A DNA stretch of 64,000 nt from Bacteroidota bacterium (GTDB taxonomy: Bacteria > Bacteroidota > Bacteroidia > Chitinophagales > LD1). The position numbers and the translations under genes are program-made. A model generated the notes under the pieces. It was not told the origin of the DNA and did not search any database. It worked only from the letters and a program-made list of their open reading frames with translations. Positions 17,153 through 36,481 of this stretch are shown here, piece by piece. Within the stretch, counting starts at the first letter, position 1, and the number at the start of each line of letters is the position of its first letter. Where the stretch lies: contig CANJZE010000003.1 of the NCBI GenBank assembly GCA_947479455.1, forward strand, positions 20,956-84,955, read 5' to 3'.

Positions 17153-17262
17153 AGATTTCTTAGGCGAAATGTCATGCATAACTTCTCAAAGCATTTTCAA
17201 GTTTCCTCAGTTGATTCTTTGAAAATGAAAAATACATTTGCGCCCTGTTCTAATTATTTATT

Positions 17263-17302
17263 GGGGAATTAGCTCATTTGGCTAGAGCGCTTGCATGGCA
17301 TG
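17263..17302 (+). other. attL: truncated 5' half of tRNA-Ala(GGC), acceptor through anticodon loop only
   Basis: GGGGAATTAGCTCATTTGGCTAGAGCGCTTGCATGGCATG matches 36333-36372 at 38 of 40 positions. The sequence then diverges into non-tRNA sequence with no T-arm. Confidence 0.85.
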
Positions 17303-17412
17303 TAGAAATAACCGAACCCCAGTTGATAGTAGTAGTTCGCAGTTACTCTGAAAACAAAATTGTTTTTGCGGTTCGTTCGCAGTTACAACGAGTTGAAAGT
17401 AGTTATGCGGGC

Positions 17413-17438
17413 TAAATGTTTGACCAAATCAACGACCA
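17413..17438 (+). repeat. 26-bp perfect direct repeat, copy 1 (candidate arm-type recombinase site)
   Basis: TAAATGTTTGACCAAATCAACGACCA, identical to 36261-36286. It lies just upstream of the integrase ATG. Confidence 0.85.
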
Positions 17439-17450
17439 AAAACTACTATC

Positions 17451-18800
17451 ATGAAAAAGCTAAGAGCGTTTGCCTCCATCACTGCTATTCTAAGAACAAA
17501 CAGAAAAAATAAATATGGAGAATACACTGTTTGCATAAGGATAACTAAGGACAGAAAGGTATCCCTTCTCTCAACTCCATATTCTTCACCAAAAAAATAT
17601 TGGGATAATAAAATTCAACGCCCTAATGGGAAGCATTATGATGTTGATGAACTGGATAAGTATCTTGACGATACAATCTCTGAATTCAAAAAAATAATGA
17701 AAGAACTTTCTGCTACGGAAGATTACTATTCTGCAAAGCAGGTTGTTGATATTTATAGTGCAAGAAATCAACCCTCTGTAAAAACATCTGCACAACCCGA
17801 AATTACGTTCAAGGAATTTTATGAAAAACTTCTTAATAGAATGGAGAAAAAGGGGCAATACAAAACAAGGGAAACATATATTGCTTCTGTTGCTTGGTTA
17901 AACAAATTCAAAAAACTAGAAGACATACTGTTTACAGATTTGACCCTTACCTTTTTTGAGGAATTACTAGCCTTTATGATTAGTAAAAAAGAAGAAGAGG
18001 AAAAACCTCCGTTCAAACCAAGTACATTATTTGGCTACTTTAAAAACTACTTGGCAATAATGAGCAAGGCAGTTGCTGAAAATATAATTACACCCTCTTG
18101 CACTAATTATAAAGGATTTAAACTGTCGCAGTTTAAAGTAGCGGTAAATCTAATTGCTATTCCTGCTAGTCAAATGGTCGATATTATGACCTTGAAACTT
18201 CAGCCTAATACATCAATATGGAATAGCAGAAATTATATTGTCTTTAGTTTTTTAAGTAGCGGAATAAACTTGGTGGATATGGCAAAGCTTAAGAAAGAAA
18301 ATCTCCGTGATAGTAGAATCGAGTATATAAGGTCGAAAACTGGTGAACGGTGCGTATTTAAATTAAATCCTAAAACGGAAGAAATTCTTAAATTTTACGA
18401 GGGATACACTCACGCTGATTATCTATTTCCTATTCTTCTAAAAGATTATTCTAAAAAGCAACTCCATAACAGAGTAAAAACCGTTTCGCGAATTGTGAAC
18501 AAAGACCTTAAAGAAATTGCCCGCCAATGCAGGATAGAAAGCAACCTAACGTTTTATGTAGGACGACATACTTGTGCAACAGAACTAAAATACTCGGGGA
18601 TTCCTGATAGCGCAATTGGTGAAGGTTTTGGACATGGTTCATCTAAGTCAATAAAGAATTATCTTAAACGATTACCTGATAAAAACATTGATTTGCTTAG
18701 TGATATTCTTTACCAAAAGATAATGACCCCAAAATGTGGTGCCGATTCCGCTAAAAAAACGGTTAGAAAATTAAAGCGACCACTCGTTAAAGCAAAATAG
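17451..18800 (+). CDS. Tyrosine site-specific integrase (Bacteroidota arm-binding-domain type)
   Basis: N-terminal KNKYGEYTVCIRITKDRKVSLLST resembles Bacteroidota integrase arm-binding domains. The C-terminal catalytic region has FYVGRHTCATELKYSG (HxxR) and GHGSSKSIKNYLK (His...Tyr). The gene sits next to the att repeat. Confidence 0.85.
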   Translation: MKKLRAFASITAILRTNRKNKYGEYTVCIRITKDRKVSLLSTPYSSPKKYWDNKIQRPNGKHYDVDELDKYLDDTISEFKKIMKELSATEDYYSAKQVVDIYSARNQPSVKTSAQPEITFKEFYEKLLNRMEKKGQYKTRETYIASVAWLNKFKKLEDILFTDLTLTFFEELLAFMISKKEEEEKPPFKPSTLFGYFKNYLAIMSKAVAENIITPSCTNYKGFKLSQFKVAVNLIAIPASQMVDIMTLKLQPNTSIWNSRNYIVFSFLSSGINLVDMAKLKKENLRDSRIEYIRSKTGERCVFKLNPKTEEILKFYEGYTHADYLFPILLKDYSKKQLHNRVKTVSRIVNKDLKEIARQCRIESNLTFYVGRHTCATELKYSGIPDSAIGEGFGHGSSKSIKNYLKRLPDKNIDLLSDILYQKIMTPKCGADSAKKTVRKLKRPLVKAK

Positions 18801-18959
18801 CTAATAATCGATACAGAAACTAAAGACCCTTGCCGAATAAGGGTTTCAGCGAATCGGGCAACAAATTGGCAACAAAATGTGTCAATAGAAAATAATTTAA
18901 AGCAACACAAAGAAACTTAATTAGCCATAATATAGTGACGGTATTGAGATGAAGTCATT

Positions 18960-19871
18960 TTATACAAGCCCGTTTATTAAATGCCTTATGTCAAACATCT
19001 GTATTACAGTTCTGTTTGTTGTTACACAAAATACCCTTACTGTCAAGATGCCATTGCTGTCAATCGAATGGGTATGAATAAATTTTGCCATTCCTTTCAT
19101 CATAGGAGGAATTTCATCAAAACTGAAATAGCCGATTGGTTGGTTGATGGAACTTATATGGCTTTCTCCGAATCGAATATCATTTGAGATGGAAATTTGG
19201 TTATCAAATGATGTAGTGATGGTAGAATATTTTTTCTCCGTTGGTATTTTTGAGTTTTTGGGTATCATTATTGTAAACTTATCGTCTTTCATCCCTTGAC
19301 CTATTGAGTTTTTTAAAGTCAATTCAGACCCAACAAAATCACTTCTGCTTTTAATAATTATATCTTCATCAGAAGCTAATTGGGCATCCTCTACTATTGT
19401 AATTTGTTGTGTATCTGTACTTGCATCATCCTTAACCGTTGAAACAAGTTTACATTCTTCTGTTAGCCTTTTAAAGTCAAGGAGAAATTCGTTTGCAACA
19501 GATTCATCTTTGATTATTGTGATGTTCTCTTGATTTTTATTCTCCGCAAAGTATGTCCAATTGTAAGAACCATTTATAACTGTTGCTTTATCAATTACGC
19601 AATACTTATTGTGCATCGGATTTTCAATATCACCGAAATAGAACTTACCACCTAAGTCAATAAATTTTTGGAAGTTCAATCCATCAGGCTTGTTATTTAT
19701 AGCATCGTTCAGAACGATTAGATTGATTTTAACTTCGGGTAACATATCACACAATACATCGAACAATTCATTGCTCGTAAACCAACAGACAGCGACATTG
19801 ATTTCCGCCTTTGCAGATTTCAATTCTTTTATAATCTCTTGACGTATGTCTTTGAAAAATGGTTTTATCAT
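18960..19871 (-). CDS. PLD-family (single HKD) nuclease domain fused to an Hsp70/DnaK-like substrate-binding beta-domain
   Basis: N-terminal HKD motif MHNKYCVIDKATVINGSYNWT (H.K....D......GS.N). The C-terminal ~110 aa align by eye to the DnaK SBD-beta: IMIPKNSKIPTEKKYSTITTSFDNQISISNDIRFGESHISSINQPIGYFSFDEIPPMMKGMAKFIHTHSIDSNGILTV against [76 protein letters not shown]. Confidence 0.7.
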   Translation of the reverse strand: MIKPFFKDIRQEIIKELKSAKAEINVAVCWFTSNELFDVLCDMLPEVKINLIVLNDAINNKPDGLNFQKFIDLGGKFYFGDIENPMHNKYCVIDKATVINGSYNWTYFAENKNQENITIIKDESVANEFLLDFKRLTEECKLVSTVKDDASTDTQQITIVEDAQLASDEDIIIKSRSDFVGSELTLKNSIGQGMKDDKFTIMIPKNSKIPTEKKYSTITTSFDNQISISNDIRFGESHISSINQPIGYFSFDEIPPMMKGMAKFIHTHSIDSNGILTVRVFCVTTNRTVIQMFDIRHLINGLV

Positions 19872-19915
19872 TTGAGTTTGCGGATACTATTCTACCAATG
19901 TTATAGTTGCTTCGC

Positions 19916-20962
19916 TTATGTTTCGAGGTTATTGAGTAGCTTGATAATTTGCTCTGCCAAGTCATTCACTACAACGTCTTCCGTTTTGTCTATCAAGGGG
20001 AATAAGGCAAATGATATTTCTCTACTGTTGTTTTCATAAGCGGTAACATTTAAGTGGCTCGCCAATTCACGGCTTCGTTTTCTTAGTCGGTCTGTCATCA
20101 CCCATTTCGCATTATTTGAAATATCATCCCTAACGAATATCCAAAAAGGCGAGTCCGCTCGTTCAGCCCAATACTCGAATTTCAATGATAATCCTGCACC
20201 AAATTTTTCCGTTTTAAAGAAACGGGTATAACCACCGCGATGTGCGCCCGAACTGAATCCCTTTGTATCGGCAATATTTCGCTTCCTTAATTCATCTATT
20301 ACCTTATCAAGAATATCATAGTATGAGTTAATTCTCTTTGCGTACTTCGGTGATAGTTCTTCACTTTGTATCGGTAGAAAGGCATTGCTATCAATCGTAT
20401 CACAGAAGCCAATAATTTGGTCTATGTCAGAAATCAAAACCTGCTCGTTATCCTGCACCAACTGTATTTTGACTGTTTGCAAAATTTCATTCCATGTTTT
20501 TACGAGCAGATGTTTGTTGCCATTGAATACAATGGAATGCGTTTCTTGATTTGAATTGCAATTTGCTTGAAAAGTATTACCGCGCTTCTGCAACTCGTCA
20601 AAAACAGGTCTAACACGAAGCGTTGGGCATATAAAAACTAATGCAGAGTTTTCTTGAAGTCGGTTTAAGTATTCATTCGGTTGATTGTCGGTAAGTGAAG
20701 CCCAAAACTTTGCTTCTAAAAGCAACACTTCTTTCCCGTCATTATTAAATCCCGATATATCAGGTCGCTCTAATTTATCTCCTACGTTTTGTGTAGAGTA
20801 GGTTATATCTTCAAAATCTAAATTACAGTTGCTCTTTATAATTCTGTTTATCGCAAGCCTTGCAGACTTTGACCTTTGCAATATGTATGCTAACCCTTCG
20901 GATGCTATGTCCTCCTGTGAGCCTTTAATCCGCGAATAAAATTGACCTAATAGTGACTGCAT
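19916..20962 (-). CDS. PD-(D/E)xK nuclease-fold protein with an uncharacterised C-terminal domain
   Basis: Motif ...LERPDISGFNNDGKEVLLLEAKFWA (PD ... E-A-K with canonical spacing). The remaining ~230 aa are unrecognised. Confidence 0.6.
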   Translation of the reverse strand: MQSLLGQFYSRIKGSQEDIASEGLAYILQRSKSARLAINRIIKSNCNLDFEDITYSTQNVGDKLERPDISGFNNDGKEVLLLEAKFWASLTDNQPNEYLNRLQENSALVFICPTLRVRPVFDELQKRGNTFQANCNSNQETHSIVFNGNKHLLVKTWNEILQTVKIQLVQDNEQVLISDIDQIIGFCDTIDSNAFLPIQSEELSPKYAKRINSYYDILDKVIDELRKRNIADTKGFSSGAHRGGYTRFFKTEKFGAGLSLKFEYWAERADSPFWIFVRDDISNNAKWVMTDRLRKRSRELASHLNVTAYENNSREISFALFPLIDKTEDVVVNDLAEQIIKLLNNLET

Positions 20963-20972
20963 TTATTTAGAT

Positions 20973-21863
20973 TTATTTCGATGCAAAAGATTTATATTTC
21001 AATACTCTTTTCCGTAATTCTTTATAATCATTTTCCTCTCCTTTCATTTTATGTAGCATTCTATGACAGTTCGAGCAAACAGTAATTAAATCTTCCTTGC
21101 TATTTTTGACTTTCCCACGAAGTTTTGATAGTGCAGTAGTATGATGAGCCTCTGCAAATCCTCTCCCAAGTTCACCGTAAGTGTTTTGAAAATCAAAATC
21201 ACAAACCTTGCATTTAAAGCCGTCACGTAATTTAACCTCATCAGCGAGTTTTTTTGACCTTTCTCTGCGAATATGTTGCGAAACGATTTTCCTATTCTCA
21301 TATGGATAATCCTCATTCGTATTCGATTCAATTTCAAGGGCTGAAACTGTGGCTTTCATTAGCCATTCAGTCTTCTTACTTATCCTGTTTAAGAATGACT
21401 TTTGGATTCTACCATTTGTTTTAATTTCATCAAAGAAGTAGTAAGTGAAAAATTTACTCTCATAGGGTTCAATAAGAAACCTTCCGAAATATTTCTTTGC
21501 AAGTGGCTTTTCAAGCATAGTTTCACCATCAGCATCCCTAATGTATGTTGAAGAATGGTCATCCTGAAAGTTACTTGATAAACTCTCTGCAATCTTTCTT
21601 ATTCTATCAATGTCGCGACACCAATAACAGATAGATATAACAGGTCTTCCAATATTCGGGAATAAATCAATCCAAAGATGAACGCCACCAATTTTTTTTA
21701 AACGAAACATCTTAACGGAATAGCCATAGGTGTCCATTTCCTCAACTTGCAAATCATCAATTCTAATTATTCTATGGTCGCGAATTTTACTTGTTAAGTC
21801 AGATTGAATTTCTTTCGCAATATCCTTAAGAATATTTTTGTAATCACGGCTTAATCTTTTCAT
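20973..21863 (-). CDS. HNH endonuclease (McrA-like C-terminal HNH) with an unknown N-terminal domain
   Basis: The C-terminus KLRDGFKCKVCDFDFQNTYGELGRGFAEAHHTTALSKLRG...LITVCSNCHRMLH carries CxxC...HH...CxxCH. Its start overlaps the upstream stop in an ATGA. Confidence 0.75.
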   Translation of the reverse strand: MKRLSRDYKNILKDIAKEIQSDLTSKIRDHRIIRIDDLQVEEMDTYGYSVKMFRLKKIGGVHLWIDLFPNIGRPVISICYWCRDIDRIRKIAESLSSNFQDDHSSTYIRDADGETMLEKPLAKKYFGRFLIEPYESKFFTYYFFDEIKTNGRIQKSFLNRISKKTEWLMKATVSALEIESNTNEDYPYENRKIVSQHIRRERSKKLADEVKLRDGFKCKVCDFDFQNTYGELGRGFAEAHHTTALSKLRGKVKNSKEDLITVCSNCHRMLHKMKGEENDYKELRKRVLKYKSFASK

Positions 21864-22618
21864 TTTTTAAAAATTGTATTCAGCAAATGAGCAAGCCTTA
21901 GCCCACTGAACAGAATTTGCTTTTCAACTATTGGAATGTTTTTGTCGAGATACTCTTGTGATAGTCGGTTATCAGAGAAGTTATAAACCGCAGGAAGATA
22001 AGCACGGGATTGCTCCATCCATTTAAGTAAATCTGTTTCTTCAATCTCCTGCTTTGAATATTTCGGCATCAACTTCAAACAATCTTCTTTCGTGATTCCG
22101 CTTTTCTGAATCATTTCTGAATCCCACAACTTGTGTAGGTTAGTTCCTTTCTCGAAGAACGTTACCTGAACTGTATTGCCTCCTTTATCTTTGCCGTAGC
22201 CAACGTGAAGCGGTTGGTGCAAATCCCCTACAAGATGAATTAAGATTTCCAAATCGCCTTTAACGCCCCATTGCGTTCTACTTTTGTTATCGCGAAGTCG
22301 TTGAGCAACATCGGTTAATTCGTTAATGATATTATCTCCTGTGGCTTGTTTATACTGCTCTCCCTTCTCTACATTGAGGTAGTGCATTGGCTTCATGTAA
22401 TCGAATGAGTGGTCGCTACGAATTACATCCATCCAAACACTTGCTTCTTCAATACTTGTGCCTGCTAAATATTTATCTACTGAATCTTTAACCGACTTGT
22501 CGAGGAACTGATAAGCGATGGATGCAATCATCTTATGCCCTTCTGCTCCCCACGCATTTGACTTTAATGGGATGTAGAGCGAAGTAACCGTAAGCAGTAT
22601 GCAACTTAATTTCTTCAT
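21860..22618 (-). CDS. S1/P1-family nuclease with signal peptide
   Basis: MKKLSCILLTVTSLYIPLKSNA then WGAEGHKMIA (the mature N-terminal Trp/His zinc ligands), HLVGDLHQPLH and NLHKLWD. ATGA overlaps occur at both ends (22615-22618 and 21860-21863). Confidence 0.85.
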   Translation of the reverse strand: MKKLSCILLTVTSLYIPLKSNAWGAEGHKMIASIAYQFLDKSVKDSVDKYLAGTSIEEASVWMDVIRSDHSFDYMKPMHYLNVEKGEQYKQATGDNIINELTDVAQRLRDNKSRTQWGVKGDLEILIHLVGDLHQPLHVGYGKDKGGNTVQVTFFEKGTNLHKLWDSEMIQKSGITKEDCLKLMPKYSKQEIEETDLLKWMEQSRAYLPAVYNFSDNRLSQEYLDKNIPIVEKQILFSGLRLAHLLNTIFKK

Positions 22619-23004
22619 GCTTCTTCTTTAAATAATTTTCGTCCGCTTAATTCTCCGAGTATCTTTTCCATCTTTTCATATTCTGACGTAAAGGTGCAAT
22701 AACCTGCGCGAATAATTTGTTGCCTTCCACAGTGAATGTGCAGTGACCATTCTATTCCATCAGTCACGTCAGAATCCCAACTGTATTTTTCCCAAAGAAC
22801 TATTGAAGGTAACATTTCGTTAAGTGGTTTCAATTCATCATCGGCAACTAATCTCTCAATGATATTTGGTGTATGAATCGGATTGTTTAAAGGATAGTCG
22901 CTATAAGTATGGATTACTTTGTTCTTCCGATATTCGATGCACTGATGTGACCCGAAGTAGCTGCCAATTTTGAATTTGAATGAACTGATTCTAAAGTTCG
23001 GCAT
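22615..23004 (-). CDS. Hypothetical 129-aa protein, second gene of the nuclease operon
   Basis: Intact ORF translationally coupled to the S1/P1 gene by an ATGA overlap. No motif recognised. Confidence 0.5.
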   Translation of the reverse strand: MPNFRISSFKFKIGSYFGSHQCIEYRKNKVIHTYSDYPLNNPIHTPNIIERLVADDELKPLNEMLPSIVLWEKYSWDSDVTDGIEWSLHIHCGRQQIIRAGYCTFTSEYEKMEKILGELSGRKLFKEEA

Positions 23005-23007
23005 CTG

Positions 23008-23172
23008 TCAGGTTTTGCTGAATATCAAAACCGCTCTAATAATCCCGCAAACAAGAATGCAAATAAGCCCGCCAAAAACTATAAACCTTCCTATCAGTTC
23101 TTCTTTGGTGTATTCACCGCCATCGGGTTTCGGGTAAATCAGAGAGTAAAGGTTGGAAAGTTGTCGTTTCAT
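23008..23172 (-). CDS. Small (54 aa) single-TM protein, not in the ORF track (below its size cut-off)
   Basis: Manual translation gives MKRQLSNLYSLIYPKPDGGEYTKEELIGRFIVFGGLICILVCGIIRAVLIFSKT. Its stop (23008-23010) lies 3 nt before the ATG of the 129-aa gene. Confidence 0.45.
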   Translation of the reverse strand: MKRQLSNLYSLIYPKPDGGEYTKEELIGRFIVFGGLICILVCGIIRAVLIFSKT

Positions 23173-23218
23173 GTTTAGAAAAAAGAATCAATAAGTTTAG
23201 TAATCGTGAATCACCAAA

Positions 23219-23731
23219 TCAAGGTTTAAGATATTTTTGATAATCCACTTTATCCTTTTTCTTCTTCTTTAATGCGTTATATTCTTCGGTAGCAGTAACA
23301 GCAATCCGAACCCAAATTGGGGGACAATGACTTTGAACTTTATTGAACGCCCTTCCCAAATCTTTAACGGGTAGCTTGTCCAATTTTAAGTAGCCAATGT
23401 ATTTGTAGAAATATATTTTTTGGTCTAACTCCTGCGTAAGATTGTTATGGCTTGCACCTACCCAAAAACTTTTTGTAAATATTTCTTTAGGTGAATTTCT
23501 TAGAACTTTATCAAAATAGAAAATTGCACTTTCATAGTCTTTGGCAATGAAGTAATCTACTCCCTTATTATAGTTCTCAATCCAATCATTTAAACGTTGC
23601 TGTTCATAAAAATCTAAGCCCTTATTCCAAGAACTATCAGTTGCAATTTTTTGAGGTGCATCCGTTGGACTTTGGCTAAAGCATAAAAAGCTGAAAACAC
23701 AGAGAAAATAAATGGGAATTACTTTTTTCAT
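23219..23731 (-). CDS. Secreted TPR-like small protein
   Basis: Signal peptide MKKVIPIYFLCVFSFLCFSQ. TPR-like helices are present (YNKGVDYFIAKDYESAIFYFDKVLRNSP). Confidence 0.5.
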   Translation of the reverse strand: MKKVIPIYFLCVFSFLCFSQSPTDAPQKIATDSSWNKGLDFYEQQRLNDWIENYNKGVDYFIAKDYESAIFYFDKVLRNSPKEIFTKSFWVGASHNNLTQELDQKIYFYKYIGYLKLDKLPVKDLGRAFNKVQSHCPPIWVRIAVTATEEYNALKKKKKDKVDYQKYLKP

Positions 23732-23753
23732 TTAAATGGTATTTTGAGTAAAT

Positions 23754-24002
23754 CTAAAAACGTTTCAACTCCGTTATATCAATACACGCCAAATACTTTT
23801 CCAATCTTTCGCCTTGTTTGAATGGCGTTACTTCCGATAGTTCTGTTTGCACCAAAACTACTTCGACATAAAAGCCATAAAGAGTATATAGGTTATATGC
23901 ACAATCTTCAATCACTGCGTTTGAAATAAACTCTCCTTTATCCCAAAGTATCTCTGCCCGTTCAGCAGTATCCAATAAAATGAATTCATACATTGATAGC
24001 AT
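23754..24002 (-). CDS. Hypothetical 82-aa protein
   Basis: ORF only; same strand and close spacing with its neighbours. Confidence 0.4.
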   Translation of the reverse strand: MLSMYEFILLDTAERAEILWDKGEFISNAVIEDCAYNLYTLYGFYVEVVLVQTELSEVTPFKQGERLEKYLACIDITELKRF

Positions 24003-24033
24003 ACTATTACATCAATCAAGTATTAACTAATAA

Positions 24034-25011: not shown

Positions 25012-25320
25012 AAGTTTTTATTGAAATGATTCTTGGCTAAACTAAGAATTGTATTTCGGACAAGTCAGATATACCGCTACACAATAAATGAATTGCCATT
25101 TTAAGCATCAAGCATCTATCCTGCACAAACCCTCGCTCGCATCCCGTTTGCGCCCAAAACACGCCCCTGCGCTCAAATTTTACGCATCAGAAAACAATTC
25201 ACGACTTCTAATTGCAGAAAAGCAATTCTGTTTATTTGCTTTATTTCAATTATTCATATTTTGCATTTGCAATACAAGTAATTCTTCTGACATACTCATC
25301 CCACTAAAACAGAATTTAGA

Positions 25321-28300: not shown

Positions 28301-30144
28301 TATTTTCCGAAATGTTTCCGCAAAACTCTGCTCGGGTAGCTAAGCAAAAACAGGCACCGCTTCGTGTAATCATGGGGAATCCGCCTTATTCTGTTGGACA
28401 GAAATCTGCTAATGATAATGCACAAAATCAGAGTTATAGAAAATTAGATAATCGAATTGCAGAAACCTATGTAGCTCTAACGGATGCAACTAATAAAAAC
28501 TCTTTATATGATTCTTACATAAAGGCATTTCGTTGGAGTACTGACCGATTAGATAAAAATGGTGGCATTATATGTTTTGTTTCAAATGGTGCATGGGTCG
28601 AAGGAAACAGCGCGGACGGTTTTCGTAAATCATTGGAAAAAGAATTCAGTTCTATTTATGTTTTCAATCTAAGAGGGAACGCAAGAACGAGTGGAGAACT
28701 TAGACAGAGAGAAGCAGGAAACGTATTTGGTGGTGGTTCTCGTACACCCATTGCTATAACTTTATTGGTAAAAAAGCCTGAATCAAAAAAACTAAAAGCA
28801 AGCATTCATTACCACGACATTGGAGATTACTTAAATCGTGAAGATAAATTAAAAGTTATAAAGGACTTTGGAACCGTTTTAAACGAAAATATTCAATGGA
28901 AACAACTGCAACCAAATGAGTTTGGTGATTGGATTAGTGTTAGAAACGAGGCTTTTTCACAGTTTATCCCCTTAGACGCAGAAAAGAAATTTAACCAAAA
29001 CTCTAAGTCATTTTTTATTGCTTATTCAAGAGGCAACGCATCATCGGCAGATGCGTGGGTTTATAATTATTCAAAACATTTGTTAGTCGAGAATGTAAAT
29101 TATACAATCTCCCATTATAATGAACAAAGGATTCTAATAAACAAAAAAAAGCAAAAAGAACCTATCAGAGATTCTACAAAAGGAAATTGGACAAGGGATT
29201 GGCTAAATCAATTACAAAAGAACAAAGAACTAAAGTTGAAGGAATGTGAGTATAGGATTGGTTCTTACCGACCTTTTGCAAAAACCAATCTTTATTTTGG
29301 TGATGAACTCAACCAAGAACGGTATTTACTCCCGAAATTACTTCCTAAAAAAAATTTAACCAACTTAGTAATATCTGTTTCTCAACGTTATACCGATGGA
29401 ACCGTTCTAATTACAGACAATATTCCTGACTTACATTTTAATGGTGATACACAGGCGTTCCCACTATATTATTATGAAGAACGGGAGATGCAAAATAAAG
29501 GATTGTTTGATGAAAGTGGTGAGAGTGAGTATATCCGTAGAGATGGAGTAAGTGATTTTATTTTGGAGCGCGCCAAAAAGAATTACGGCAAAACCGTAAA
29601 CAAAGAAGATATTTTCTATTACGTGTATGGCTTTTTGCATAGCCCCGAATATCGCTTAACTTATGCGAATGATTTAAAGAAAATGATGCCCCGATTACCG
29701 TTAGTAGAAGATGTAAGGGATTTTTGGAAGTTCAGTAAGGCAGGCAGAGCATTATCAGAGTTACATATCAATTACGAAACAGTTCCTGCCTATCGAGGCG
29801 TAATTGTAACAGGAGCAGATAGTGGTTTTTACACCGTAGAGAAAATGCGATTTCCGAAGAAAGACCAAAAGGATACGATTATTTACAACAGCAAAATCAC
29901 CATTTCAAACATACCTGCAAAAGCATACGAGTATGTTGTAAATGGTAAAAGTGCAATTGAATGGATTATGGAACGTTATGCCGTAACCACTCATAAAGAA
30001 AGCGGTATCAAAAACGACCCGAACGATTGGGCAGCAGAAGTGGGTAATCCGAAATATATTTTAGACCTGCTGTTAAGCATCATCAACGTGAGTATGCAAA
30101 CAGTGGAAATTGTTGAAGGATTGCCGAAGGTGAAGTTTGAATAA
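25321..30144 (+). CDS. Type ISP restriction-modification enzyme (Mrr-like nuclease, SF2 ATPase, N6-adenine methyltransferase, TRD in one 1607-aa polypeptide)
   Basis: N-terminal Mrr-type motif GIDLVAL...YWAIQCKC. Helicase motif I MACGTGKTF, motif II IICDEAHRTTG and motif VI-like QSVGRVMR. MTase motif I LDPFTGTGTF and motif IV VIMGNPPYS, followed by a ~550-aa C-terminal region. Domain order and size match LlaGI/LlaBIII-type enzymes. Confidence 0.8.
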   Translation: MAITFNQILEKYRKISFSERDKGDRFERLMQAYLLTDPKYSNKLKKVWMWSEFHGKNDLGGGDTGIDLVALTNEGDYWAIQCKCFQESSVIDKPAVDSFLSTSSREFKNEELKTVSFSHRLWISTTNKWGTNATEAIKNQKPPVTRLNLYDLQEAPVDWEKLDKGIHGEASRTPKKTLRLHQKEALDKTHEHFKNAERGKLIMACGTGKTFNSLRIAENETNGKGLILFLVPSIALLGQTLREWSSDANEPINAICICSDPEISRKKTKNEDNDNFSVVDLALPASTNTKDILHQFQRIKTKGNSGLTVVFSTYQSIEVIARAQKELLKNGFSEFDLIICDEAHRTTGVSLAGEDESAFTKVHNNDFIKGKKRLYMTATPRLYNDDTKSKAAQADAVLCSMDDPKLYGEEIYRIGFGEAVERDLLTDYKVLILTLSDKDVPPAVQKMIADKESEINTDDASKLIGCINALSKQILGDEGIIKASDPEPMRRAVAFCSSIAVSKKITATYNTATDAYISSLPTDKKDEMVSVASKHIDGTMSAPERDELLGWLKEDFDNNECRVLTNVRCLSEGVDVPSLDAVMFLSARNSQVDVVQSVGRVMRKSEGKKYGYIIIPVVVPADVEADKALDDNERYRVVWTVLNALRAHDDRFNATVNKIELNKNRPAQILVGRPEYSWEDGKPVSGSNETGTNKDISKQMALQFEQLQHVVFARMVNKVGDRRYWEQWAKSVAEIAERQVERINRLITEDKKHQKAFANFLGGLQKNINPSITQQEAVEMLSQHIITKPVFEALFDGYSFVKNNPISVSMQTMLDLLEEQAIEKDLDVLQKFYDFVKRNAGGIDNAKGKQDIIIRLYDSFFKTAFPKMVEKLGIVYTPTEVVDFIIHSVNDVLKKEFDRSISDENIHILDPFTGTGTFVTRLLQSGLIKKKDLQRKYQNEIHANEIVLLAYYIAAVNIENAYHDAMGEIDYQAFDGICLTDTFQLGESDESEKLFSEMFPQNSARVAKQKQAPLRVIMGNPPYSVGQKSANDNAQNQSYRKLDNRIAETYVALTDATNKNSLYDSYIKAFRWSTDRLDKNGGIICFVSNGAWVEGNSADGFRKSLEKEFSSIYVFNLRGNARTSGELRQREAGNVFGGGSRTPIAITLLVKKPESKKLKASIHYHDIGDYLNREDKLKVIKDFGTVLNENIQWKQLQPNEFGDWISVRNEAFSQFIPLDAEKKFNQNSKSFFIAYSRGNASSADAWVYNYSKHLLVENVNYTISHYNEQRILINKKKQKEPIRDSTKGNWTRDWLNQLQKNKELKLKECEYRIGSYRPFAKTNLYFGDELNQERYLLPKLLPKKNLTNLVISVSQRYTDGTVLITDNIPDLHFNGDTQAFPLYYYEEREMQNKGLFDESGESEYIRRDGVSDFILERAKKNYGKTVNKEDIFYYVYGFLHSPEYRLTYANDLKKMMPRLPLVEDVRDFWKFSKAGRALSELHINYETVPAYRGVIVTGADSGFYTVEKMRFPKKDQKDTIIYNSKITISNIPAKAYEYVVNGKSAIEWIMERYAVTTHKESGIKNDPNDWAAEVGNPKYILDLLLSIINVSMQTVEIVEGLPKVKFE

Positions 30145-30282
30145 AGCATTTGCATCGAAGTTTTATAATTTTGATAAAACGAATAATTGAAATGAAAACA
30201 TAAAAAGGATTACATAAACATATTGCGTACTGCAATCTTCCTCAAGATAAAACCGCGAAATTTTAAGACAGAAGATGAAAGC

Positions 30283-30376
30283 AGAGAACGCGCCCGCTGG
30301 GTGCTTCTCTAATTCATTTCTGTCGGGTGCTTCGCGGTACCTTTCTTGGGGTGATGCGGAGATAGCACCCTTTTTT
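30283..30376 (+). promoter_or_regulatory. GC-rich structured leader with alternative pairings and a terminator-like hairpin plus T6 (attenuator/riboswitch-like or small RNA)
   Basis: Hairpin AGAGAA-C-GCGCCC-GCT-GGGTGC-TTCTCT (30283-30310). A second GGGTGC lies at 30325-30330. GGGTG (30349-30353) pairs with CACCC (30366-30370) and is followed by TTTTTT (30371-30376). The element ends 28 nt before the ATG at 30405. Confidence 0.35.
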
Positions 30377-30404
30377 ATTCACAACATTAAAACAAATAAG
30401 CCCG

Positions 30405-30674
30405 ATGGAAATTAGTAAGCTAAAGATTGACGGGAAGGAATACGTAGGAAAATTTATTCAGAGTGAGCAGTTTGCTGCTTTTCAAATTAAAGAGTTTGAC
30501 AAGGAGCCTAATGAAGACAACTGCTTAAAAGGAATATACCGTCATGGTTCTAAGGGAGAAGAAAAAATATTAAAAATTCGATTCGTAAAGGGTAGTCCTG
30601 TCGGCTTTAGGCTTTACAATAAACGAAACAAAACAAAAAGCAAAACTGCTTGGCATTTTATCAAAGTAGCTTAA
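30405..30674 (+). CDS. Hypothetical 89-aa basic protein
   Basis: ORF only; first of six same-strand small ORFs. Confidence 0.4.
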   Translation: MEISKLKIDGKEYVGKFIQSEQFAAFQIKEFDKEPNEDNCLKGIYRHGSKGEEKILKIRFVKGSPVGFRLYNKRNKTKSKTAWHFIKVA

Positions 30675-30685
30675 TACGTGTCTAA

Positions 30686-31066
30686 ATGAATATTCGTAAC
30701 AATTCCGATTGGGTAGAGATAGCTGATAGCAATTTTCGATACAATGTTCAACTAAATGGCTTTAATATAGATTACGTTCAATATGCAAAAGAAAATCCCG
30801 AAAAAATAATTGGAATTGGGTTTGACATTGAAGGTGATGGTAAAAGCTATAACAAGATAATGAACAATGAAAACAATCGCAATGCAGTTCAAATGCTAAG
30901 TAGGAACAGTGATATATTTTTATTTACAGTTAGCAAGTGGAACATTGAGTATATGCCGAATGGCATCAATCAAACCAATATTTTTCGGTGGGAGGTAACA
31001 AACGATATATCTCGTTTGATTTTTTTAATCCGTGATTTTGCTGAAAGCAATAAGCCAATAGACTAA
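30686..31066 (+). CDS. Hypothetical 126-aa protein
   Basis: ORF only; 11-nt spacing from the previous ORF. Confidence 0.4.
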   Translation: MNIRNNSDWVEIADSNFRYNVQLNGFNIDYVQYAKENPEKIIGIGFDIEGDGKSYNKIMNNENNRNAVQMLSRNSDIFLFTVSKWNIEYMPNGINQTNIFRWEVTNDISRLIFLIRDFAESNKPID

Positions 31067-31077
31067 ACAACATTTAT

Positions 31078-31872
31078 ATGGATTCTCTCGCAGACAAAAA
31101 ATTGGTAGTAGATAAAATTAGAAATTTCGTATTCAATGAAATTCCTCATGCTAAATGGGGAGAAGATAAGCCACAAAGATTTTTGATTTTCAGGACTTTG
31201 CTTGCATTTCCGTTTAGACGACATGAAGGTTCTGTAAATTTGAAATTTACTAATTACAAAGACAAAGGGAATGACGAATGCCTTGAACGTTTTGTTTTAG
31301 TTATTGACGAATCGGAAATCAGATTAAGCTATTCAGACGAGAATGAATATGATAACTATTGCTATCATTTGGAAGGTGACCATGATGATTATAAGGATAT
31401 GGATTGGGAGGAGTGGATTAGACAAGTAGAAGCAGGTCTTGTTGCAAATGAGTTAGAACTTGAGGTTGAAGGTGGTTTGAAATTACTTTCTAAAAAAACG
31501 GGTTATGAATGTTTGCAAGACCGTTATGAATCAGAAGGATTAAAACAAGCAGAATATGACCCAAACTATGCGGATTCTGTAATTACAGAAAGTAATAGCA
31601 ATTATTTTGTTTTTAAAGATAGTAACGGCTACGGAGTTAAGGATGATGTTGGTGATATTCTTGAAGAAGGATTAACAAGCGAACCTGAATATTGGGGTAA
31701 AGAAGTTGATAGAGTGTCTTTTTATATTGGAGATAAAAATCATGATAGAATTTACGATGAGATTGGTGGGGAAGTTATTTGGGGCGACTTCAAAGTAATT
31801 GAAAATAAAGATGAGTATTTAGTTTTAAAAGATATGGACGGATTGGTGTCAAATCTTTATGAAGCAGAATAA
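31078..31872 (+). CDS. Hypothetical 264-aa strongly acidic protein
   Basis: ORF only; rich in D/E (DENEYDNYCYHLEGDHDDYKDMDWEEW). Confidence 0.45.
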   Translation: MDSLADKKLVVDKIRNFVFNEIPHAKWGEDKPQRFLIFRTLLAFPFRRHEGSVNLKFTNYKDKGNDECLERFVLVIDESEIRLSYSDENEYDNYCYHLEGDHDDYKDMDWEEWIRQVEAGLVANELELEVEGGLKLLSKKTGYECLQDRYESEGLKQAEYDPNYADSVITESNSNYFVFKDSNGYGVKDDVGDILEEGLTSEPEYWGKEVDRVSFYIGDKNHDRIYDEIGGEVIWGDFKVIENKDEYLVLKDMDGLVSNLYEAE

Positions 31873-32006
31873 TTGAACTGCTACCTCTTTTAACCAAATA
31901 TGGTTAAGCATGATATTTTTGTCAAGGATTGTCATGGCACATAAACCTCAAAAAAAGTATCATACTTCAAAAAGATATTTCTTAAGTTTGGAATAAATAA
32001 TACAAT

Positions 32007-32324
32007 ATGAAAACACATTATCTGAATGTAGAAAAGGTTTCAAAGTTTGAAGACATCTATAATTTCTTTTATAAAGGTGAAATATCAAATGGAGATGAAG
32101 TTGTTGTTGATGAAGGCACTTCGGGTTACGATTTTGTTCATAGACAAGTGATGTACGGAATTTTCAGAGAAGCCTTGCATCGTAAAAACTATGAAACTCA
32201 ACATTCCTATTACACACCACTTGAATACAAGATTCTTCCACCGTTTTTTGAAACCACGTTTTTCGCAGATACTTTAACGAAGGATACGGGAATTACATTT
32301 AAGGTTGTTAAGGGAAATTCGTAA
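32007..32324 (+). CDS. Hypothetical 105-aa protein
   Basis: ORF only. Confidence 0.4.
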   Translation: MKTHYLNVEKVSKFEDIYNFFYKGEISNGDEVVVDEGTSGYDFVHRQVMYGIFREALHRKNYETQHSYYTPLEYKILPPFFETTFFADTLTKDTGITFKVVKGNS

Positions 32325-32432
32325 ACGTAAATTTCAATTATTCTTATATAAGCTAAAATTTCACGTTCACGAAAAACGCGTTTGAACGCATATTAAATAC
32401 TATAAACTTTTTAAAAATTAAATTTAATAGCA

Positions 32433-32834
32433 ATGAGAAAAATCATTACTAACATCACTATAATAGCAATATCTCTATTGCTTTTTTCCTGTGGCAACGA
32501 CCAGAACAAAAAAGTAATTGGAACACCAATCAAGATGGGCAGTTTTGAAGTTGCCGAAAACGACCTCTCTAAATTGTTTAATTGGAATGAAGGAAAAGGT
32601 GAATGTGTTGCTTTAGGCGATGGATGGAGATTACCTACAAAAGAGGAAATGGAAATAATGCACAACTATCCATCACAAGAGCATCTTGCAAAAAAAATAT
32701 TTGATGATGGCGAATATTGGAGTTCAAATGAAATTGATGACGTTTATGCTTGGTCTATGTATTTGAACGGAGGCAAATCTATTGGAAACGAAAAGACGCA
32801 TGAAAAACTCATTAGACCAGTAAGGTCTTTATAA
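32433..32834 (+). CDS. Lipoprotein with a DUF1566-like (Lcl C-terminal-like) domain
   Basis: Lipobox-like ...LLLFSCGND. The motif pattern GWRLPTKEEME...YWSSNE...AWSMYLNGG...IRPVRSL is typical of DUF1566-family proteins as I recall them. Confidence 0.5.
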   Translation: MRKIITNITIIAISLLLFSCGNDQNKKVIGTPIKMGSFEVAENDLSKLFNWNEGKGECVALGDGWRLPTKEEMEIMHNYPSQEHLAKKIFDDGEYWSSNEIDDVYAWSMYLNGGKSIGNEKTHEKLIRPVRSL

Positions 32835-32893
32835 AGAGCAAATAGGCATTCCTTTGCGGAGCGTTCAACCCGACAGAATAAACAAAATGAGTT

Positions 32894-33217
32894 ATGAGTA
32901 AAGTATTCAACCTACAAGGTCAAGTAGTTGCAACTTATGTGTTTGATAAAGTTTGGAACAAAGATACTTCTGACGGAACGCCTATTGGCAGGTTTGTGTT
33001 TGGTAGAATTTATAACAAAGATAGCACTGACGGAGAACCTATCGGCTATTATGGACTTGGCAAAATTTGGGATAAGGGTAAATCCATTCACCAACCAATC
33101 GGCTCTTACGCCATTGGTAAAATATTCAAGGGTTATCCAAATGGCAAACTTGTAGGAACTTATTCTGGGCATGATGATGGCGCTGCAGCCTCCGCCTATC
33201 TATTGCTATTTAAATAG
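32894..33217 (+). CDS. Small protein built from four ~19-aa internal repeats
   Basis: Repeats are ATYVFDKVWNKDTSDGTPIG / RFVFGRIYNKDSTDGEPIG / YYGLGKIWDKGKSIHQPIG / SYAIGKIFKGYPNGKLVG. Confidence 0.5.
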   Translation: MSKVFNLQGQVVATYVFDKVWNKDTSDGTPIGRFVFGRIYNKDSTDGEPIGYYGLGKIWDKGKSIHQPIGSYAIGKIFKGYPNGKLVGTYSGHDDGAAASAYLLLFK

Positions 33218-33313
33218 CACCTAACAAACGTCCGTTTATTTATCATGGTTGTGACAGGGGAGGTTCCATAGGCAATTACTCGATTTTTTGAAAAACAATT
33301 ATTTGGGGGAGTA

Positions 33314-33928
33314 TTATTTGCTTTCTACTGTATCGGGTAGGTAATCATTGATTTGCCGATAGATACCTTTATCGACATCTTGTTTTTTTCTTTTGCTTGC
33401 TTCACGTAATAGATACCCGCCCGATTTACGCTTCTTAGTGTCTTTACTGTCTTTGGGTCTGCCTAATAACTTGCCTTGATTTTTTGCTCTCCACAAACCT
33501 TCAATTGTTCTTTCTCGAATTAGTTCACGCTCGAATTCTGCAAAGGCGCAAAGAATTTGAAAATGGAGTTTTCCCGATGCAGTAGAAAAATCAAGGTTGT
33601 CGCTTATTGAAATAAACTGAACTCCTTTATCAAGCAATTCTTTTATCTCTGTTATTAACTCTTTTGAACTTCTTGCCCATCGGTCGAGTTTATATACAAC
33701 AACCGCAGAATATACACCTGCCCTTAACCTGGCTAACAATTCTTGCTTAACAGGTCGGGTTTTGCGCGTAGTCATAACTTCTTCAAACAAGTCAAACTCA
33801 CACCCTTTAGTTTTTGCAAATTCGTGAAGACGTAATGTTTGGTTATCTACCGTTTGAGTATCAGTTGAAACTCGGGCGTATAGCGCGATTTTCATGTTAG
33901 CTATATTATCTTGTGTATCGTTTAGCAT
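33314..33928 (-). CDS. Serine recombinase (small resolvase/invertase family)
   Basis: MKIALYARVSTDTQ (catalytic Ser motif), VVVYKLDRWARS, FISISDNLDFST...G. The true start may be the internal ATG at 33895. Confidence 0.85.
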   Translation of the reverse strand: MLNDTQDNIANMKIALYARVSTDTQTVDNQTLRLHEFAKTKGCEFDLFEEVMTTRKTRPVKQELLARLRAGVYSAVVVYKLDRWARSSKELITEIKELLDKGVQFISISDNLDFSTASGKLHFQILCAFAEFERELIRERTIEGLWRAKNQGKLLGRPKDSKDTKKRKSGGYLLREASKRKKQDVDKGIYRQINDYLPDTVESK

Positions 33929-34113
33929 TACGGTCGTTTTATTTGGTCAGATAAGTCTTTATAATTCTTTGCAGTAAACGTAAGTATTTGGAAAAGCCCA
34001 CCCACAACCAAAAGAACGCCTCCGACCAATGCAATTACTTTTATTGTCGTAAACATTTTGCTTTCGCCAAATTCCATGAGCGAATCCTTTAAATTTTCAT
34101 TTCCCTTTGTCAT
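33928..34113 (-). CDS. Small (61 aa) single-TM protein
   Basis: TM segment IKVIALVGGVLLVVGGLFQILTF. It overlaps both neighbouring genes. Confidence 0.4.
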   Translation of the reverse strand: MTKGNENLKDSLMEFGESKMFTTIKVIALVGGVLLVVGGLFQILTFTAKNYKDLSDQIKRP

Positions 34114-34288
34114 AATCGAATGGTTGATTTTTTCTTGTAATGTATAAAAGTGTCATGCCCGCTATTACCATACCTCCGATAAATATCCAATAGCCATTAC
34201 TGTCGTTGCTTTCGTTTCCGTTCGCAGAATTACGCGGGGTGGCACCCGATATTTGAGATGCACCTGCTAATTGAGAAATCTTATTCAT
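34097..34288 (-). CDS. Small (63 aa) single-TM protein
   Basis: The internal ATG at 34286-34288 (MNKISQLAG...) overlaps the stop of the upstream 121-aa ORF by 8 nt. TM segment YWIFIGGMVIAGMTLLYI. Confidence 0.4.
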   Translation of the reverse strand: MNKISQLAGASQISGATPRNSANGNESNDSNGYWIFIGGMVIAGMTLLYITRKNQPFDYDKGK

Positions 34289-34646
34289 AATCACCTCTCT
34301 TAACGATGTAATAATTCGTGTCAATTGAATCTTGCTCAATCGTATAATGGTATATAGATGCTATTAGTTTCCCATTATGCCTCTCATGACTTGTCATTAC
34401 GGTGAAATCGTAGCCACGCCCTCGTAAAAACTCATGATGAAGTCTAATATTACTTCCTCCTTCAAGTGCATTAGTCAGGATACGAAAATTTTTCAATAGA
34501 GGCTTATCAATAACTGCCCGTATCTGTCGGTCTTGCTGTGCGCGAAGGTTATGATATCGAATTCGATTTTTTGCTTCCGAAAATTTTTGTGTAATTCTCT
34601 TAGGAACAAATTTTTCTTTCGTATGTAAATCTTGTCTTGTTTCCAT
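34281..34646 (-). CDS. Hypothetical 121-aa basic protein
   Basis: ORF only; first gene of the minus-strand unit that ends with the serine recombinase. Confidence 0.4.
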   Translation of the reverse strand: METRQDLHTKEKFVPKRITQKFSEAKNRIRYHNLRAQQDRQIRAVIDKPLLKNFRILTNALEGGSNIRLHHEFLRGRGYDFTVMTSHERHNGKLIASIYHYTIEQDSIDTNYYIVKRGDYE

Positions 34647-34915
34647 TTTTTAAATATTAGTGAACGTGCAAAGATACAGGAATATTATCCATATATGCAA
34701 ATAATATATAATGTTATGCATACTATGTGCATTGATAGATTTATACATATTGTGTTGTATGTTTGATTTGTGTTTAATATGTATTGCTAAGTTTTGTACC
34801 CATATTTTATGTGTATTAAATAGCTTTAAGAAAAAAGGATATATAAAGGTATTTAGTAATTATTCTTAATACATAATACATAGTATGTGGAAGAATTCTT
34901 CTACTCCCCCGCGAT

Positions 34916-35665
34916 TCATTTAGCTTCTCTGTCTTCATGATTGTTTCTTGATTCATTTAGGTTATTCATATACTGCTTTATTGAATCCTGTGCCGTTGTT
35001 GCACCCTTAGTCCTGTTAGCCTGTTTTAGTGCATCTGCGGTGTATCCATCCCTTCTAATTGGGTAATTGCTTCTATTGTTTCGCGGTGGTAGTAATTCAA
35101 CAATGGTCGGGTACCCGCCTCCAATAGCCTGTTGGATTATTTTTCCTCTTATCTCATTATAAGACAACTGCGGGTAATTACACTTGCTCCTAAATGCCAA
35201 ACCCTCCAATTTTTTCAAAAACGCTTCGAGTGTTTTTTGTGAATAGATAGGCTTTCGGCTTTGCATTCTATAATCAACAAACTCTATGATTAAATCTCGA
35301 TAGGAAGTATCAATGGCATCAAAATTTAATTCTGTCCTCGTATTCGGGTTTTGGTCTGGTTTGTTATCATTTAACACAGGTTTGAAATTTTGAACAACGA
35401 TATTTAAGTAACGCTTACGACCATCGCTCTTTTTAACCCAAATAAGCCCAAGTTCCTTTAGTTCGCTGACGTATTTACTTATAGTACGACCGCCTACGTT
35501 TAATCGCTTTCCTAATGTTTCGTTGCTTTCAAAACAATCCTTCCCGTTATTTGAATAGCTAAGTATAAGCCCGTACAATAATTTAGAATTTGGGTGCATT
35601 GAGATTTTTAAAATGTGTGTAGGGATAGTTATAAATGTGTCCCTCTTTATTTTGTTTTGTGACAT
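34916..35665 (-). CDS. Winged-helix DNA-binding protein (replication-initiator-like or regulator) of the island
   Basis: wHTH segment ETLGKRLNVGGRTISKYVSELKELGLIWV. It sits directly downstream of the excisionase-type gene (2-nt gap). The function is inferred from context. Confidence 0.5.
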   Translation of the reverse strand: MSQNKIKRDTFITIPTHILKISMHPNSKLLYGLILSYSNNGKDCFESNETLGKRLNVGGRTISKYVSELKELGLIWVKKSDGRKRYLNIVVQNFKPVLNDNKPDQNPNTRTELNFDAIDTSYRDLIIEFVDYRMQSRKPIYSQKTLEAFLKKLEGLAFRSKCNYPQLSYNEIRGKIIQQAIGGGYPTIVELLPPRNNRSNYPIRRDGYTADALKQANRTKGATTAQDSIKQYMNNLNESRNNHEDREAK

Positions 35666-35667
35666 GG

Positions 35668-35976
35668 CTATTTGTTTTTGCGTTTAATTGTTCGAACTGT
35701 ATCCCTAATCTGTTGTTGTCGTCCTGACACAAGCCAATCAAGCAGTTCTTGTCTTATGAAGCGCTTATGCTTACCTATTCTTCGAAAACCGATAAGCCCC
35801 GTATCGGTGTAATAATTGAGTGTGCTTTCGGATAGCTTTAATAATTCAGCCGCTTCTGAAAGTGTTAGTACATCATCGGGATTTGTAGTTGTTTTGATTT
35901 TAGTTACGATGAGTAACTCTTTCATAACTTCTAAAATGCTGTTGAGCATTTCCTTTGGAGTTGTTTGTTCTGTCAT
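35668..35976 (-). CDS. Excisionase-family (MerR-like) helix-turn-helix DNA-binding protein
   Basis: LTLSEAAELLKLSESTLNYYTDTGLIGFRRIGKHKRFIRQELLDWL. Confidence 0.7.
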   Translation of the reverse strand: MTEQTTPKEMLNSILEVMKELLIVTKIKTTTNPDDVLTLSEAAELLKLSESTLNYYTDTGLIGFRRIGKHKRFIRQELLDWLVSGRQQQIRDTVRTIKRKNK

Positions 35977-36260
35977 TATAGTTGGTTTTAACTGTAACAG
36001 AACAAATTGTAAGCCTCAAAAAAATATTATTTATCTTATTTGAATTATGCAATTTATACCTGACATGAAGGACTGACAAAAAAAAATAGTAGTCAAATCG
36101 TCAAGTGATTTCGACTAAAATGTCAGAAATAATTTCCAAATTATGTAGTTGAGTAATTACATGCAAGGTTCCTCTGCGATATTACTTTATACTGTAACTA
36201 TCTGTGCGCATTTGTAAAAAATATTAGGTTTGCCTTGCTATCAACTGGATGTTCTGTTTA

Positions 36261-36286
36261 TAAATGTTTGACCAAATCAACGACCA
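36261..36286 (+). repeat. 26-bp perfect direct repeat, copy 2 (candidate arm-type recombinase site)
   Basis: TAAATGTTTGACCAAATCAACGACCA, identical to 17413-17438. It lies 46 nt upstream of the tRNA. Confidence 0.85.
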
Positions 36287-36332
36287 TCTTTTCTTCAATT
36301 GCAGAAAGATGTAGTGATTTTACCTATGAAAA

Positions 36333-36406
36333 GGGGAATTAGCTCATTTGGCTAGAGCGTCTGCATGGCATGCAAGAGGCGACCGGTTCGAATCCGGTAT
36401 TCTCCA
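36333..36406 (+). tRNA. tRNA-Ala (anticodon GGC), hybrid attR copy
   Basis: Manual cloverleaf: acceptor GGGGAAT/ATTCTCC with a G3:U70 pair, D-arm GCTC-ATTTGGCTA-GAGC, anticodon loop ATGGCAT, T-arm ACCGG-TTCGAAT-CCGGT, discriminator A. 74 nt, no encoded CCA. The anticodon stem TCTGC/GCAAG has one G-U pair and one C-A mismatch. Confidence 0.85.
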
Positions 36407-36481
36407 CAGATTGTTCGAAGGACTTTTTCATTAGCTGCATGTGGAAAGATTTGGTAAGACAGGCCCGCAAAATTTTTTTGT

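Follow-up and report, generated by a model that had tools for sequence, protein, structure and literature searches.

A 19-kb genomic island in a Bacteroidota tRNA-Ala(GGC) gene that appears to carry the 5' part of its target

Phage HP1 in tRNA-Leu exemplifies integration at an anticodon loop, and NBU1 and NBU2 are tRNA-targeting elements of the Bacteroidota. Most tRNA-targeting islands duplicate the 3' part of the gene, as an earlier note on the DNA described here had supposed: the Islander collection totals 3919 islands, of which 3760 have a 3' and 159 a 5' tDNA fragment, and its filters expressly permit an upstream 5' fragment, the 5' type being already known (Hudson, Lau and Williams 2015, PMC4383910). 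The class of integrases with a "symmetric sublocation" in the anticodon loop is summarized in that paper and in a preprint (10.1101/2020.11.02.365908), whose survey of Klebsiella pneumoniae also reports arg2A-VII islands inserted upstream of tRNA-Arg. According to Farrugia et al. 2015 (PMC4482086), dusA-specific integrases insert in the 5' end of their target gene and so replace its 5' part. A Riemerella anatipestifer 10K island resides at tRNA-Arg (PMC6764341). Here, we analyzed a window of 64,000 nucleotides (the whole stretch under study, positions 20,956 to 84,955 of contig CANJZE010000003.1, assembly GCA_947479455.1, Bacteroidota bacterium), which very probably contains a 19-kb island that inserted, by its own integrase, at the anticodon loop of tRNA-Ala(GGC) with an element attachment site (attP) bearing the 5' part of the tRNA.

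The lone tRNA gene found in the window by ARAGORN is tRNA-Ala(GGC) at 36333-36407 on the plus strand, and the segment 17263-17302, which starts 19,070 bp before it, repeats nucleotides 1 to 40 of this tRNA with two mismatches (CT at 17290-17291 versus TC at 36360-36361, that is, positions 28-29 of the 75-nt gene). The claim of the earlier note that the attachment repeat is the 5' half of tRNA-Ala, with the island between two plus-strand copies, was confirmed, and so was the start of the repeat at tRNA position 1; its proposed end inside the anticodon loop has to be corrected, as identity covers the entire 7-nt loop and one base beyond. The left copy stays tRNA-like for five more bases (GTAGA-A, to 17307), but here the anticodon stem has a different 3'-strand allele. 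The two ends are as follows.

17263-17307, plus strand: predicted attL, the displaced tRNA 5' fragment, with bases 1 to ~35 native (CTTGC) and the loop onward (GTAGA-A) from the element
17292-17302, plus strand: left 11-bp identical core TGCATGGCATG, with the anticodon loop ATGGCAT at 17295-17301
36333-36407, plus strand: predicted attR, the intact hybrid tRNA-Ala(GGC), with an element 5' part (TCTGC) and a native 3' part (GCAAG onward)
36362-36372, plus strand: right 11-bp identical core, with the anticodon loop at 36365-36371

Between the copies are an intact tyrosine integrase gene, an excisionase-family gene, and defence cargo, and the G+C content is 0.34-0.37 inside the island versus 0.38-0.42 outside. 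A 62-nt degenerate pattern drawn across both junctions gave only two matches, at the attL and attR places, with 0 expected in shuffles. Moreover, both junctions are spanned at 100% identity by one 101-kb contig of an independent NCBI metagenome-assembled genome (L041, L017), and ENA and Logan contigs likewise span them; because independent contigs carry both junctions, the arrangement is not an assembly artefact. With regard to the features by which Islander recognizes an island, the integrase (17451-18800) lies within the element, the full tDNA is accompanied by a co-oriented end fragment that stands upstream and begins at tRNA position 1, as a 5' fragment should, and the length of 19,070 bp falls within the range of 2-200 kb.

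Host and element appear to have carried distinguishable anticodon-stem alleles, and for this reason both the place of the crossover and the foreign half of the tRNA can be read from the sequence. The left copy reads CTTGC-ATGGCAT-GTAGA, whereas the right, intact copy reads TCTGC-ATGGCAT-GCAAG, and in the ARAGORN drawing the anticodon stem of the intact tRNA contains one U-G wobble and one C-A mismatch. When the halves are exchanged at the loop, two fully paired stems result, namely, CTTGC/GCAAG and TCTGC/GTAGA. The former allele is found in 16 of the 19 congener species, and the tRNA of one congener, G018, corresponds base for base to positions 1-35 of the left copy followed by positions 36-75 of the right copy, while the latter is carried by congeners G008, G023, and G001. 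In addition, GTAGA-A runs contiguously into the integrase arm, and CTTGC is the genus-typical allele. Given that the reconstructed CTTGC/GCAAG tRNA equals the G018 tRNA and represents the commonest allele of the genus, it is identified as the predicted host attB, with tRNA 1-45 in the TCTGC/GTAGA form as the predicted attP. Since allele differences flank the 11-bp identical core on both sides, the predicted crossover is bounded to this core, which contains the anticodon loop, in agreement with the earlier note; the exact cleavage positions within it we can only infer. The locus also has the geometry of a symmetric sublocation, with the crossover in the anticodon loop between inverted stem strands.

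The working tRNA, on this evidence, is predicted to consist of an element 5' part and the native 3' part. Because the element allele TCTGC/GTAGA is unlike the host allele CTTGC/GCAAG, the product would be a hybrid tRNA with a weakened anticodon stem, and the calculated cloverleaf free energies were -20.7 kcal/mol for the hybrid and -24.4 kcal/mol for the reconstructed native tRNA (the hybrid being 3.7 less stable). No other tRNA-Ala gene was found in the assembly, which is 96% complete; tRNA-Ala(UGC), which usually occurs in rRNA operons, is probably unassembled here. As a separate observation, the TCTGC/GTAGA tRNAs of G008, G023, and G001 stand on differing T-arm backgrounds, and the allele in these congeners could reflect either shared ancestry or element alleles written into host tRNAs.

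A left fragment that is merely a decayed tRNA duplicate unrelated to the island, its stem differences having arisen by point mutation, would be compatible with a 40-nt repeat that has just two mismatches, and tRNA pseudogene fragments do occur. However, the fragment stops exactly at the integrase arm, arm repeats flank the core at left and right, the five stem positions that differ fall into two allele pairs, each fully complementary and each present in real tRNAs of congeners, and the same junction is seen beside a 77% identical integrase in another host (described below); we thus consider such a duplicate extremely improbable.

The displaced fragment is preceded by the following feature.

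17203-17262, plus strand: native upstream region of tRNA-Ala(GGC), by match to congeners, with the box TACATTTG at 17233-17240

These 60 nt match the tRNA-Ala(GGC) upstream region in G008 (94%), G023, G001, G014, G009, and G024 and contain a conserved TAnnTTTG box (TACATTTG, a Bacteroidota-type -7 box) located 22 nt from tRNA position 1, and many tRNA genes in the source genome have a TAnnTTTG-type box at an equal distance. The DNA upstream of the intact tRNA, in turn, is island DNA with arm repeats and has no counterpart in relatives. The match of the left flank to the upstream region of the relatives indicates displacement of the native promoter together with the native 5' half, and the intact tRNA, being preceded by island DNA, would have to be transcribed from within the right arm of the island. 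The Bacteroidota-type -7 box nearest to the intact tRNA is TAGGTTTG (36225-36232, 100 nt upstream), which is preceded by an A-rich run, as is the native box, and represents a candidate motif for an element-supplied promoter. Hence, the view of the earlier note that the element brought its own tRNA 5' half was supported on several sides (native left flank, island DNA upstream on the right, reassorted stem alleles, the G018 tRNA equal to the reconstructed empty site, and the same junction in the relative L024), while for the promoter that it presumed to have come along, only the candidate motif was found. No terminator-like site was found between the native upstream region and the integrase gene (int), and since the displaced promoter points into int, this gene may be read through from it.

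Taken together, these features suggest the following course of events. The tyrosine integrase would insert the 19-kb island into the anticodon loop of the host's sole tRNA-Ala(GGC) gene by means of an attP that holds tRNA positions 1-45 instead of the usual 3' part. Crossover in the loop would then place the island upstream of the tRNA, with the native promoter and 5' half displaced to a position directly before int (attL), while the tRNA at attR would have the element 5' part joined to the native 3' part and would be transcribed from the island right arm.

The recombination genes and putative arm sites, including a perfect 26-bp direct repeat common to both arms (DR2), are listed below.

17451-18800, plus strand: tyrosine integrase, 449 aa (Pfam Arm-DNA-bind_5, Phage_int_SAM_5, and Phage_integrase)
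35668-35976, minus strand: candidate Xis, an excisionase-family DNA-binding protein of 102 aa (TIGR01764; PF12728 HTH_17)
17308-17450, plus strand: integrase-proximal arm (P'), with CCAGTTGATAG at 17319-17329, GTTCGCAGTTAC at 17335-17346 and 17375-17386, and DR2 at 17413-17438
35977-36332, plus strand: far arm (P), with the box TAGGTTTG at 36225-36232, CTATCAACTGG at 36238-36248, and the second DR2 at 36261-36286

An alignment of the integrase with its relatives shows R294, R372, H395, and Y404 to be invariant, and the candidate Xis scored 33.8 bits against TIGR01764, with a cut-off of 28.8. Besides DR2, an 11-bp inverted pair extends across the arms (17319-17329 versus CTATCAACTGG at 36238-36248), and in a circularized element both kinds of repeat would lie to either side of the core, in the manner of arm-type sites. 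In each of the five members of the integrase clade, the motif CCAGTTGAT and DR2 are conserved immediately before int. On the other side of the gene, Logan contigs L042 to L045 all end at one base (window 18873-18874), 73 nt past the integrase stop, and this shared end suggests a branch of the assembly graph at which the integrase module is joined to different cargo; the cargo that follows int in L024 is also unrelated to that of the window. L045 was considered as the same element in another host by virtue of its first bases, GGGATTAGC, but these lie at the contig end and were not relied on.

The integrase has few close relatives. A scan of GTDB genomes with the integrase returned no close relatives, and among 400 genomes of the order the best matches outside the source genome were 32-33% identical, with no tRNA adjoining. 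A core-plus-arm pattern gave two matches in GTDB genomes, which belonged to unrelated phyla and were taken as chance. The closest integrase is 77% identical and resides on a 3.1-kb Logan contig, L024, from another host, in which the neighbour gene, on the minus strand, is followed by the same upstream region, then tRNA 1-40, an arm that matches (CCCCAGTTGATAG..., DR2), and finally int. The host flank of L024 is 92% identical to G008, whose tRNA is uninterrupted at that place, and the two are read as a pair of occupied and empty sites at the level of close species. Three further integrases, on L025, L026, and L027, are 43-46% identical and have the same arm motifs and DR2 before int, and beside their core is the reverse complement of the 3' part of tRNA-Ala(GGC), after which L026 has a terminator and then chromosomal genes; by sequence, these three have the classical configuration, with the element predicted to supply the 3' part of the tRNA. 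The outgroups L037, L036, and L038 (~28% identity) are also of the classical 3' type, one on tRNA-Ala and two on tRNA-Met. A maximum-likelihood tree recovered the five-member clade with support of 100/100, in which the window integrase and L024 (100/99) were sister to L027 and L026, with L025 being basal. Because the window and L024 nest among 3'-type members and the outgroups are of the 3' type, the 5' geometry appears to be derived within this integrase clade.

The host stem-loop offers a possible explanation for such a change. Its 17 bp, CTTGC-ATGGCAT-GCAAG, are their own reverse complement except for the central loop base, and so the near-palindrome would offer the same half-sites to the integrase in either orientation. 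In the reading direction of int, the 5' and 3' classes both have CTTGC as the half-site on the host side, and their loops are ATGGCAT and ATGCCAT, respectively. As a general rule, tyrosine recombinases require overlap sequences that match, and combined with the near-palindrome this rule implies that a single base pair would set the direction of integration at this target, the window element and its 77% relative using the stem-loop in the orientation opposite to that of the rest of the clade. We propose, tentatively and as a scenario that falls somewhat short of probable, that the polarity of tRNA use switched within one clade, in which a lineage inserted the wrong way round captured the tRNA 5' half, and perhaps the promoter along with it, by aberrant excision and became upstream-integrating; aberrant excision from a wrong-way insertion is one route to the 5' half. 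If true, such a switch placed int behind the host tRNA promoter and wrote element stem alleles into host tRNAs, and it could bear on the variable TCTGC/GTAGA allele and the variable genomic position of the tRNA among congeners.

Several points weigh against insertion by a 5'-bearing element as set out above. First, the block from promoter to tRNA (17203-36481) is inverted with respect to the gene at 36482-37606 relative to L024, G008, G009, G005, and G023: in these relatives, the homologue of this gene (a 374-aa dehydrogenase-like gene) is divergent from and adjacent to the tRNA upstream region, while in the window it is downstream of the tRNA. This calls for one or more additional rearrangements of a kind that the integrase does not make; presumably, some other event inverted either the entire block or, at a time when the island had yet to arrive, the tRNA module alone. 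The reading of a 5'-bearing insertion neither requires nor explains this inversion. Second, the 3'-type relatives are known from their int-side ends only. Third, a motif of the TAGGTTTG type would be expected by chance in about 1 in 5 such spacers. Finally, exact-protein look-ups of the flanking gene and the integrase yielded 13-18 contigs, all island-bearing and 100% identical, which effectively represent one lineage and include no same-species empty site.

The inversion and the almost palindromic core, which makes an inversion by the integrase conceivable, together raise the question of whether a classical 3'-part island came first and a later rearrangement, for example an inversion between the cores or of the whole block, only mimics the 5' geometry. 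However, had a 3'-type insertion been inverted between its two cores, the far junction should show a reverse-complemented 3' part beside the loop, and a correct D-arm and acceptor 5' strand are seen there instead. Moreover, the synteny break falls inside the ~33-nt spacer between the promoter region and the neighbour gene, outside the tRNA core, and an inversion made by the integrase was rejected as the cause of the inverted synteny on this ground. L024 has the same 5' geometry in un-inverted synteny, so that a rearranged classical island is largely refuted and in our judgement very unlikely.

In the source genome, synteny with the closest relative, G008, is broken every 1-3 kb, and within the genus (loci L002-L012 and L028-L035) the gene neighbourhoods of tRNA-Ala(GGC) number three or more. 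No further homology was detected when the 74-nt spacer following the tRNA and the spacer that follows a 220-aa gene were used as queries. In G009 (L006, 1242-1431), ARAGORN predicts a tandem pair of tRNA-like genes, with a 4-base anticodon (agca), just downstream of tRNA-Ala(GGC), and a dispersed repeat of ~70 nt is common to G008 and the source genome, occupying several intergenic places (L013 941-1017 and 11432-11518; source genome C5:62358-62419, C14, C1, and C6).

The comparison with island-free genomes that the earlier note had called for was achieved in part: the G018 tRNA equals the reconstructed attB and G008 is empty for L024, but a same-species genome free of the island was not found. 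JGI metagenome contigs gave no match either to one degenerate pattern for attL, attR, attB, and attP or to a pattern of the core and the P' arm. An alternative is that the integration occurred as described but has left a fixed and immobile remnant, with the hybrid tRNA and the displaced promoter as functionless, tolerated scars. Such a remnant would fit the presence of the island in every assembly of the lineage at 100% identity, the lack of circle or empty-site evidence, and the fact that the core arms of attL and attR are mismatched to each other. Nevertheless, the integrase and excisionase-family frames are intact with conserved integrase catalytic residues, both DR2 copies are perfect, the two ends have the same 11-bp core, and the sampled contigs are effectively one clone, so that fixation says little; we regard an immobile remnant as rather unlikely, although it is the likeliest of the alternatives. 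On the preferred reading, the island would still be mobile.

The remaining genes of the island are as follows.

18960-33217: cargo, comprising a PLD-Hsp70 fusion, HNH, S1/P1 nuclease, NERD-like protein, Type ISP/IIG enzyme, and a run of small open reading frames (ORFs) (Pfam)
33314-33928, minus strand: small serine recombinase of the resolvase/invertase type (Pfam Resolvase, 1e-37; weak NCBIfam invertase matches)
34916-35665, minus strand: HTH_36 protein with a weak match to the RepC N-terminal domain (Pfam)

The cargo looks defensive, judging from predicted gene functions. A 1607-aa Type ISP/IIG restriction-modification enzyme is encoded at 25321-30144 (PADLOC REase_MTase_IIG, 2342 bits). A tightly packed minus-strand run at 18960-23004 encodes a PLD nuclease, here fused to an Hsp70 substrate-binding beta-domain, a 348-aa unknown protein, an HNH protein, an S1/P1 nuclease, and a 129-aa unknown protein; it gave only weak DrmC-like and HNH matches in PADLOC and is a candidate uncharacterized defence module. 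Families for phage structure or packaging, type IV secretion, or relaxases were absent from the Pfam assignments of the 20 island ORFs (several small ORFs being without assignment), and the island does not appear to belong to the prophages or the integrative and conjugative elements.

The locus documents with particular clarity how integration into a tRNA gene can follow the rare 5'-fragment (upstream) mode. The only tRNA-Ala(GGC) gene of the host would now take its promoter from the island, and the anticodon stem that it encodes is mismatched. In addition, sister integrases of opposite polarity offer a compact system that relates one overlap base pair to the direction of integration and to which half of the gene is carried. 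The general picture of tRNA-targeting islands is unchanged.

Compared with known systems, the island shares with the 5'-fragment islands of Islander the integrase inside, the intact tRNA at one end, the co-oriented upstream 5' fragment, and the restoration of the split gene by the element, and it differs in that it occurs in an uncultured Bacteroidota lineage, that stem alleles reveal the origin of each half, and that sister integrases use the 3' configuration. With the symmetric-sublocation class, it shares a crossover in the 7-nt anticodon loop and stem strands that serve as inverted core-type sites; however, elements of that class carry the part from the loop to the 3' end, whereas this island carries the part from position 1 to the 3' strand of the stem. 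The Klebsiella arg2A-VII islands reportedly use a D-loop sublocation rather than the anticodon loop and belong to another phylum and another integrase architecture, and the dusA elements follow the same logic of 5' replacement but with a protein-coding target and an unrelated integrase family. NBU1, NBU2, and the Riemerella 10K island have in common with it Bacteroidota tyrosine integrases with arm-binding domains, a small non-conjugative form, and excision helpers, but they are located on the downstream side of the tRNA, whose 3' end they duplicate. For the heterobivalent integrases of Bacteroidota (Arm-DNA-bind_5, IntDOT/NBU-like), arm-type binding sites are expected on both sides of the attP core, and the repeats on the two arms are candidates for such sites here. 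Thus, 5'-fragment islands are known but uncommon, and this island adds one more, with an unusually legible crossover.

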